A stretch of DNA of 654 nt from the NCBI RefSeq assembly GCF_003334255.1, contig NZ_QOWU01000203.1; one strand, given 5' to 3'. Of this stretch, positions 1 to 654 are shown piece by piece. Under the pieces are notes generated by a model. It saw nothing but the letters and a program-made list of their open reading frames with translations. It had not been told where the DNA came from and did no database searches. Positions within the stretch are counted from its first letter, which is position 1. The number at the start of each line of letters is the position of its first letter. This DNA is from Escherichia coli (GTDB lineage: Bacteria; Pseudomonadota; Gammaproteobacteria; Enterobacterales; Enterobacteriaceae). The translations under genes and the position numbers were made by a program.

Positions 1-105
1 TCTCAGATTCAGATTATGTCGCTCAATGCGCTGAGTGTAACGCTTGCTGATAACGTGCAGCTTTCCCTTCAGGCGTGATTCATACAGCGGCCAGCCATCC
101 GTCAT
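1..105 (-). pseudogene. insB: Downstream continuation of insB in the same frame, after the internal stop. It runs off the window edge and is the remnant of the transposase C-terminal portion.
   Basis: The minus-strand frame continues directly after the TAG as ATG ACG GAT GGC TGG ..., giving [35 protein letters not shown], which matches the recalled InsB segment [36 protein letters not shown]. It is open to position 1. Confidence 0.7.
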
Positions 106-402
106 CTATACCACGACCTCAAAGGCCGACAGCAGGCTCAGAAGACGCTCCAGTGTGGCCAGAGTGCGTTCACCGAAGACGTGCGCCACAACCGTCCTCC
201 GTATCCTGTCATACGCGTAAAACAGCCAGCGCTGACGTGATTTAGCACCGACGTAGCCCCACTGTTCGTCCATTTCAGCGCAGACAATCACATCACTGCC
301 CGGTTGTATGCGCGAGGTTACCGACTGCGGCCTGAGTTTTTTAAGTGACGTAAAACCGTGTTGAGGCCAACGCCCATAATGATGCGTGCACTGGCGCGAC
401 AT
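106..402 (-). CDS. insB: IS1 InsB (transposase catalytic part, insB' frame), ending at a premature in-frame TAG. The ATG at 400..402 is nominal, since the frame is normally entered by -1 frameshift from insA.
   Basis: The six-frame ORF translates to [98 protein letters not shown], which closely resembles the N-terminal ~100 aa of IS1 InsB. It stops at TAG (reverse complement of 106..108), where canonical InsB has ...DVVIWMTDGW... Confidence 0.75.
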
Positions 403-596
403 CCGACGCCATTCATGGCCATATCAATGATTTTCTGGTGCTTACCGGGCTGAGAGGCGGTGTAAGTGAACTGTAGTTGCCATGTTTTACGGCAAGGAGA
501 GCAGAGATAGCGCTGATGTCCGGCAGTGCTTTTGCCGTTACGCACCACGCCTTCAGTAGCGGAGCAGGAAGGACATCTGATGGAAATGGAAGCCAC
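318..596 (-). CDS. insA: IS1 InsA: transposition inhibitor / DNA-binding N-terminal part of the InsAB' transposase (92 aa, GTG start)
   Basis: The six-frame ORF 318..596 (-) translates to [92 protein letters not shown]. It has a CxxC...CxxC zinc-finger arrangement (CPSC...CSPC) and the IS1 InsA C-terminus LKNSGRSR. The start is GTG at 594..596 and the stop is TAA at 318..320. Confidence 0.9.
336..342 (-). other. Programmed -1 ribosomal frameshift site (A6C slippery heptamer) joining insA to the insB' frame
   Basis: The minus strand reads ...CAC TTA AAA AAC TCA GGC CGC AGT CGG TAA in the insA frame. AAAAAAC is the reverse complement of 336..342. The -1 frame after the motif reads [18 protein letters not shown]..., which is the InsB-type continuation. 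Confidence 0.85.
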
Positions 597-651
597 GCAA
601 GCACCTTAAAATCACCATCATACACTAAATCAGTAAGTTGGCAGCATTACC
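597..651 (-). promoter_or_regulatory. insA promoter / operator region within and adjacent to IRL, with a Shine-Dalgarno-like AAGGTG
   Basis: Established IS1 biology places the weak insA promoter partly inside IRL, where InsA binds and autorepresses. In the sequence, a candidate -10 TATGAT lies at minus strand of 617..622, and AAGGTG at minus strand of 602..607 sits 5 nt upstream of the GTG start at 594..596. No convincing -35 was identified. Confidence 0.4.
629..651 (-). repeat. IS1 terminal inverted repeat (IRL, 23 bp), the InsA/transposase binding site
   Basis: The minus strand of 629..651 reads GGTAATGCTGCCAACTTACTGAT. This matches the recalled IS1 IRL GGTGATGCTGCCAACTTACTGAT with one mismatch (GGTAATG, as in the recalled IRR). 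It lies about 55 nt upstream of the insA start. Confidence 0.85.
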
Positions 652-654
652 GAA

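Follow-up and report, generated by a model that had tools for sequence, protein, structure and literature searches.

The IS1 copies of Escherichia coli K-12 are the closest described systems to the element studied here. IS1A and IS1E, which are of the IS1R-type consensus, carry 23-bp terminal repeats, insA, an A6C slippery site and the insB' frame within about 768 bp, and the present element has the same layout. InsA binds the inverted repeats via a zinc finger and a helix-turn-helix, and a rare -1 frameshift at A6C gives the DDE transposase InsAB' (PMC12428005). The transposase frame of IS1A is uninterrupted, and it is copies of this type that move in K-12 (PMC12428005). IS1F of K-12 has 73 mismatches from the consensus, and after deletion of IS1A and IS1E from K-12, transposition of the non-consensus copies was not detected (PMC12428005). 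When InsAB' was overproduced, the non-consensus copies were mobilised in trans, and IS1F accounted for 44% of the insertion events (PMC12903888). The authors ascribed this share to the better-matched inverted repeats of IS1F (PMC12903888). In these papers the immobility is put down generally to mismatches, and the amber codon that interrupts the insB' frame of IS1F is mentioned in neither PMC12428005 nor PMC12903888.

The window, which is the whole stretch of 654 nucleotides analysed here, contains with high probability the left 651 bp (the IRL side) of IS1F beside ykiE and fecI, in a rarer 771-bp allele that is unable to transpose by itself because of the amber codon. An IS1F pseudogene copy beside the fec genes is already known; it is annotated in K-12 and in RefSeq, and it has been characterised experimentally.

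Identity and layout of the element

The IS1 element fills positions 1-651 of the window on the minus strand. The features are as follows.

652-654, minus strand: host flank of three bases (minus-strand TTC) towards ykiE/fecI, matching the fec-locus flank that ends in GGGGATTTC and is followed directly by GGTAATG
629-651, minus strand: IRL, GGTAATGCTGCCAACTTACTGAT, read from the sequence
644-617, minus strand: promoter-like site CTGCCA-16-TATGAT from the promoter scan, overlapping the IRL
318-596, minus strand: insA from the list of open reading frames, with a GTG start at 596 and a TAA stop at 320-318, encoding a 92-aa InsA
382-384, minus strand: 3-nt in-frame CAT insertion, the placement of which is ambiguous within CATCAT at 384-379
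336-344, minus strand: A6C slippery site TTAAAAAAC for the programmed -1 frameshift from insA to insB', the same as in IS1A
109-338, minus strand: insB' frame between the frameshift site and the premature stop, holding the N-terminal part of DDE_Tnp_IS1 and the first candidate catalytic Asp (EMDEQW)
106-108, minus strand: amber codon TAG in place of TGG, W163* of InsAB' in IS1A numbering and codon 164 of 233 here
1-105, minus strand: insB' frame 3' of the stop, now excluded from the translated fusion, with MTDGW (second Asp, 99-97) and a stretch of ten residues, not spelled out here, that contains the Glu (24-22)

According to a megablast search of 5,426 complete genomes of E. coli, the window is present over 654/654 bases with 100% identity in many E. 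coli chromosomes, including those of the type strain ATCC 11775 and of S88. Every match is annotated as 'IS1-like element IS1F family transposase'. The 771-bp copy of ATCC 11775 is the same as K-12 MG1655 IS1F (4518472-4519239; insA7 b4294 and the pseudogene insB7 b4576) at 768/768 aligned bases and has a 3-nt insertion in addition. Thus, when the K-12 sequence is taken as the reference, the near-identity that defines the IS1F isoform is observed. The identical loci also agree with the earlier view, formed from the sequence alone, that the element is truncated by the edge of the window, that about 650 bp are present and that the other end lies beyond position 1: 651 of the 771 element bases are inside the window, and the remaining 120 (the 3' end of insB' and the IRR) lie past position 1.

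The full element has 73 mismatches to IS1A over 768 aligned positions; within the window there are 65, together with the 3-nt insertion. The identity to IS1A is 90.5%, below the value of about 98% or more expected of a canonical IS1A/IS1R copy. The sequence-only reading had proposed a divergent IS1 isoform distinct from IS1A/IS1R, and had named near-identity to these as the finding that would speak against it; at 90.5% the proposal holds. It had further stated that the element is not the canonical K-12 IS1, which is right with respect to the IS1A-type copies and wrong in that K-12 itself has IS1F at the same site. The many third-position differences that it had seen were counted here as 51 of the 67 coding mismatches. 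At the codon level, 45 changes are synonymous and 18 are nonsynonymous, and this mostly synonymous pattern indicates that the IS1F lineage was functional for a long time.

A relationship to Shigella copies had also been suspected, and a near-identical intact copy was found on pSB4_227 of S. boydii Sb227 (99.35%). A second intact IS1F-type copy is present in an EDL933 record (99.6%). Both siblings (L005 and L006) have the same IRL and belong to the same lineage, and they are 768 bp long and have TGG, not TAG. The pSB4_227 copy is bounded by a 9-bp target duplication, CAAGCTTCT, and retains His34 and Thr52 as in IS1A.

insA, the CAT insertion and the frameshift site

The IRL, insA and the A6C site are all intact in the window. 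The IRL begins with GGTAATG, and not with the GGTGATG of IS1A (G4A), just as had been read before the alignment was made. In the full-length copy at an identical locus, 20 of 23 positions are shared by the IRL and the IRR, which corresponds to the IS1-type terminal repeat of about 23 bp beginning with GGTRATG. In IS1 the insA promoter sits in the IRL, and the promoter-like site found by the scan overlaps it. No terminator was detected by a scan of the window. An Rfam scan of the window returned nothing at E <= 1, that is, no curated RNA family, frameshift elements included.

The product of insA matches the Pfam domains Zn_ribbon_InsA at residues 1-36 (E = 1.9e-18) and HTH_Tnp_IS1 at residues 43-87 (E = 2.1e-24). 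NCBIfam models for the IS1/IS1595 zinc-binding domain and the IS1 transposase match, and NF050000 scores over its cut-off. Compared with the InsA of IS1A, seven substitutions (V4I, S7R, D15E, H34P, T52K, T69S and I80V) and one inserted residue (Ile72) were identified. Five substitutions had been listed from the sequence: S7R, D15E and T52K are confirmed, the supposed S4I is V4I and the supposed H35P is H34P, and T69S and I80V had escaped the list. In the same way, the description of both proteins as differing by scattered substitutions is correct as to the divergence, and it missed the amber codon in insB' (108-106) and the 3-nt insertion in insA (384-382).

The CAT insertion is the sole difference from K-12 IS1F. 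InsA and InsAB' thereby gain an Ile that follows Arg71 in their helix-turn-helix region, so that the element is 771 bp long and encodes a 92-aa InsA, whereas K-12 IS1F is 768 bp long. The 61-mer centred on the insertion has exact matches in no more than 75 of the 20,395 E. coli records, the type strain included. The window is from a minority sub-lineage of the fec locus. The insertion is a usable marker of this one sub-lineage of the fec island, which is represented by no more than 75 complete-genome records. Downstream of it, the A6C motif is identical to that of IS1A through the insA stop codon, and the PGAP annotation carries the remark 'programmed frameshift'.

The amber codon in the insB' frame

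The insB-frame entry in the list of open reading frames (106-402, 98 aa) ends at the TAG codon. K-12 IS1F has the same amber codon, and its insB7 carries a pseudogene annotation. Beyond it, the insB' frame runs through the window and 102 nt further to a TAA inside the IRR, as seen in the rest of the element at an identical locus (L001, 6655-6774). The uninterrupted InsAB' frame expected of an autonomous element is therefore absent; the interruption is at 108-106. When the stop is repaired in silico, the Pfam domain DDE_Tnp_IS1 (PF03400) is recognised in the fusion at residues 103-233 (E = 3e-73). Even when truncated, the product reaches 165 bits on NF033558, the NCBIfam model of the IS1 transposase, which has a cut-off of 100. 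Of the 131 positions of the DDE domain, roughly the initial 61 precede the stop.

D109 (EMDEQW), D166 (WMTDGW) and E191 (in the ten-residue stretch mentioned above, with an Arg seven residues after the Glu) are candidate catalytic residues, assigned from the generic DDE signature. The stop is located three codons ahead of the TDG motif (D166) and 28 codons ahead of the E-x7-R signature. A sequencing error as the origin of TAG was ruled out, since the 61-mer centred on it is present exactly in 2851 E. coli records. The counterpart 61-mer with TGG is present exactly in 4233 records. Being amber, this stop would be read through in supE laboratory strains.

The stop abuts directly on the native ATG of Met164, giving TAGATG at 103-108 of the window. 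This arrangement could allow termination followed by re-initiation, and a separate C-terminal fragment could be produced.

The fec locus

The ykiE-IS1F junction, scored at a coverage of at least 80%, was found in 2600 of the 5426 complete genomes (about 48%). As an allele, the amber codon is real and common, and it is linked mostly to the fec locus. In five of the five 100% matches examined, IS1F and the small gene ykiE, which adjoins fecI of the ferric-citrate system fecIR-fecABCDE, are 31 bp apart, and in all five PGAP records a pseudogene and adds the remark 'programmed frameshift; internal stop'. The 3-nt flank in the window agrees with the fecI-proximal site. K-12 IS1F has the same ykiE/fecI site and the same left flank. 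No usable literature on a link between fec and insertion sequences was found, and the link of IS1F to fec thus rests on genome annotations.

The flank ending in GGGGATTTC and followed by GGTAATG is common to the fec-locus copies of ATCC 11775, S88 and K-12. On the other side of the element, K-12 and ATCC 11775/S88 diverge from the first base after the IRR. In ATCC 11775 the right end of IS1F reads GTCATTACC and is followed by the flank TCCTCCCGAACTC. To the right of the 771-bp allele (L001, 6770-7181) there are pseudogene fragments of a hypothetical protein and IS3-family remnants, and then a ymgB/ariR-like gene. This context is kept in all five of the examined 100% matches, and yjhU is present there in K-12. 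On the far side of fec, remnants of IS3-family (IS911), IS30 and IS600 elements and the leuX tRNA gene are located in both ATCC 11775 and K-12, and no second IS1 was found beyond fec in either genome.

A target duplication, typically of 8-9 bp, had been expected from extension of the window. At the fec locus it is absent in the two genomes compared: GGGGATTTC on the left faces TCCTCCCGA in ATCC 11775 and GACCATGTT in K-12. A missing target duplication is frequent after rearrangements mediated by insertion sequences, and an element without one can still belong to IS1.

An empty pre-insertion site was also sought, and no clean one was obtained from L015 or from the Klebsiella plasmid L016. In L015 (1703/1704), the ykiE flank ending in GGGGATTTC is joined to DNA of a plasmid integrase region exactly where IS1F starts elsewhere, and IS1 is absent. 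Junctions of this type represent a rare rearrangement onto an IncF backbone, seen in seven genomes. In L016, the fec plasmid pKPN80_1 of Klebsiella pneumoniae, a perfect hairpin GACATCCTCCCCGCCC-TTTA-GGGCGGGGAGGATGTC is located at about 1665-1712, downstream of the ykiE-like region. The right arm of the hairpin is degenerate in E. coli (L001, 5970-6003), and the homology between L016 and E. coli stops 4 nt (TTTC) short of the IS1F end. According to the end of the homology and the degenerate arm, the original IS1F insertion probably removed or replaced neighbouring DNA.

Copies on plasmids

The exact 61-mer with TAG was found on only 39 plasmid records. Seven of these plasmid copies were sampled. 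Six are full-length, each at a different site, on plasmids of E. coli, E. fergusonii and Enterobacter, and TAG is present in 6/6; neither a target duplication nor the CAT insertion was found in the six. When target duplications were sought around nonsense copies at other loci, they were detected in 0 of 9 plasmid copies. A clean duplication there would have directly indicated that such copies are mobilised in trans in nature.

The combination of the CAT insertion and TAG occurs in a 771-bp IS1F upstream of hlyC on IncF alpha-haemolysin plasmids (L009, 2502-3272; L010, 2502-3272; L011, 2502-3271). The flank of these copies ends in GATTAC, unlike that of the fec locus, and they differ from the window allele at P34H and K52T. 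No target duplication was found around these three copies, and L011 has an extra 1-nt deletion.

One of the six sampled full-length copies, on pS65EC (L020, 990-1757), is a mosaic IS1. It has an IRL of the IS1A type (GGTGATG), an identity of 94.8% to IS1F and a TAG segment of the IS1F type. Judging from this mosaic, recombination between isoforms, or gene conversion, can spread the nonsense segment without transposition. An IS1F-type copy on pTB211 (L019, 1046-1757) has lost about 50 bp internally (reference positions 419-468), and there is a short overlap where the two sides of the deletion meet.

Mobility and alternative explanations

The following course of events is proposed for the window element. 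The promoter region would be supplied by the IRL, and the insA product would bind the inverted repeats and repress. A -1 frameshift at A6C would join InsA to the insB' frame to form InsAB'. The fusion frame would then meet the amber codon at codon 164, and the predicted product would retain the first Asp together with the DNA-binding domains, and would lack the second Asp and the Glu. Such an element would be incapable of self-transposition. Because its ends are intact, the transposase of other IS1 copies could act on it as a substrate. It may in addition serve as a site for homologous recombination, and an InsA-like protein with the extra Ile in its helix-turn-helix could still be expressed.

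The immobility of IS1F is explained most simply by the amber codon. This lesion provides a simple molecular reason why K-12 IS1F does not move on its own, yet moves well when transposase is supplied. The published absence of self-transposition and the published mobilisation in trans concern the K-12 768-bp allele, and we infer that the 771-bp allele would behave in the same way. Non-autonomous elements that are mobilised in trans, such as MITEs and defective copies of insertion sequences, likewise have intact ends and no working transposase, and mobilisation by a related transposase has been shown experimentally for K-12 IS1F (PMC12903888). Unlike the MITE-type miniatures with their internal deletions, the window element is of the full-length type with a single nonsense lesion. 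The result matters little beyond annotation: the element should be labelled as the pseudogene copy of IS1F that borders the fec module, and not as a new or active isoform.

A bolder reading regards the amber IS1F as a successful non-autonomous parasite, which would be either unusually well mobilised in trans or weakly self-sufficient via re-initiation. We consider it improbable. If true, it would account for the finding of the same nonsense allele not only at fec but also at many unrelated sites on plasmids of E. coli, E. fergusonii and Enterobacter.

There is a slim chance that the copy is retained as a regulator, with intact insA supplying the InsA repressor in trans and damping other IS1 copies. 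In every fec-locus copy examined insA is open and insB' is broken, and one fixed site is occupied in about 48% of the complete E. coli genomes, which favours this view. However, the linkage to the fec module and the very little change since insertion give a simpler account of the persistence. The extra residue in the helix-turn-helix region of the 771-bp allele and the P34H and K52T differences of the hly copies are unlike tight constraint, and the substitutions are too few for a selection test.

Slimmer still is the chance of a split transposase, in which translation would stop at TAG and restart at ATG, and a DNA-binding N-terminal fragment with the first Asp and a 69-aa C-terminal fragment with the second Asp and the Glu would rejoin into a weakly active enzyme. 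The adjacency of the stop and the Met164 codon (UAGAUG) and the occurrence of the nonsense allele at many loci on plasmids of several species are consistent with it. On the other hand, IS1F did not transpose in K-12 without the consensus copies (PMC12428005), and the frameshifted ribosomes that would have to re-initiate are already rare. The sampled nonsense copies have no target duplication, and the mosaic L020 indicates that spread by recombination is possible without transposition.

An autonomous, active divergent isoform, both proteins of which merely carry scattered substitutions, was implied by the sequence-only reading and has next to no probability. Every part of an IS1 is recognisable, the 45 synonymous codons outnumber the 18 nonsynonymous ones, and TGG siblings with a 9-bp target duplication exist. 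These features are outweighed by the in-frame amber at codon 164 of the fusion, by the pseudogene annotation in RefSeq and by the failure of K-12 IS1F to transpose detectably by itself (PMC12428005).

The sequence-only reading had raised a composite transposon, and IS1F does lie exactly at the conserved edge of the fec module, with K-12 and ATCC 11775 differing from the first base after the IRR and with the junction recurring on some plasmids, but an arm of such a transposon with the fec genes as cargo is equally close to zero in probability, and the Tn9-like arrangement was ruled out, because no two IS1 copies bracket fec in ATCC 11775 or K-12, where the far side holds the IS911, IS30 and IS600 remnants and leuX, and because no target duplication surrounds IS1F or the fec module.

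The ykiE-IS1F junction is also present on a few real plasmids. Several PLSDB 'plasmid' records with the fec-IS1F junction (hits H38, H40, H43 and H56) are 0.65-4.9 Mb in size, and they appear to be whole chromosomes, or parts of them, deposited as plasmids.
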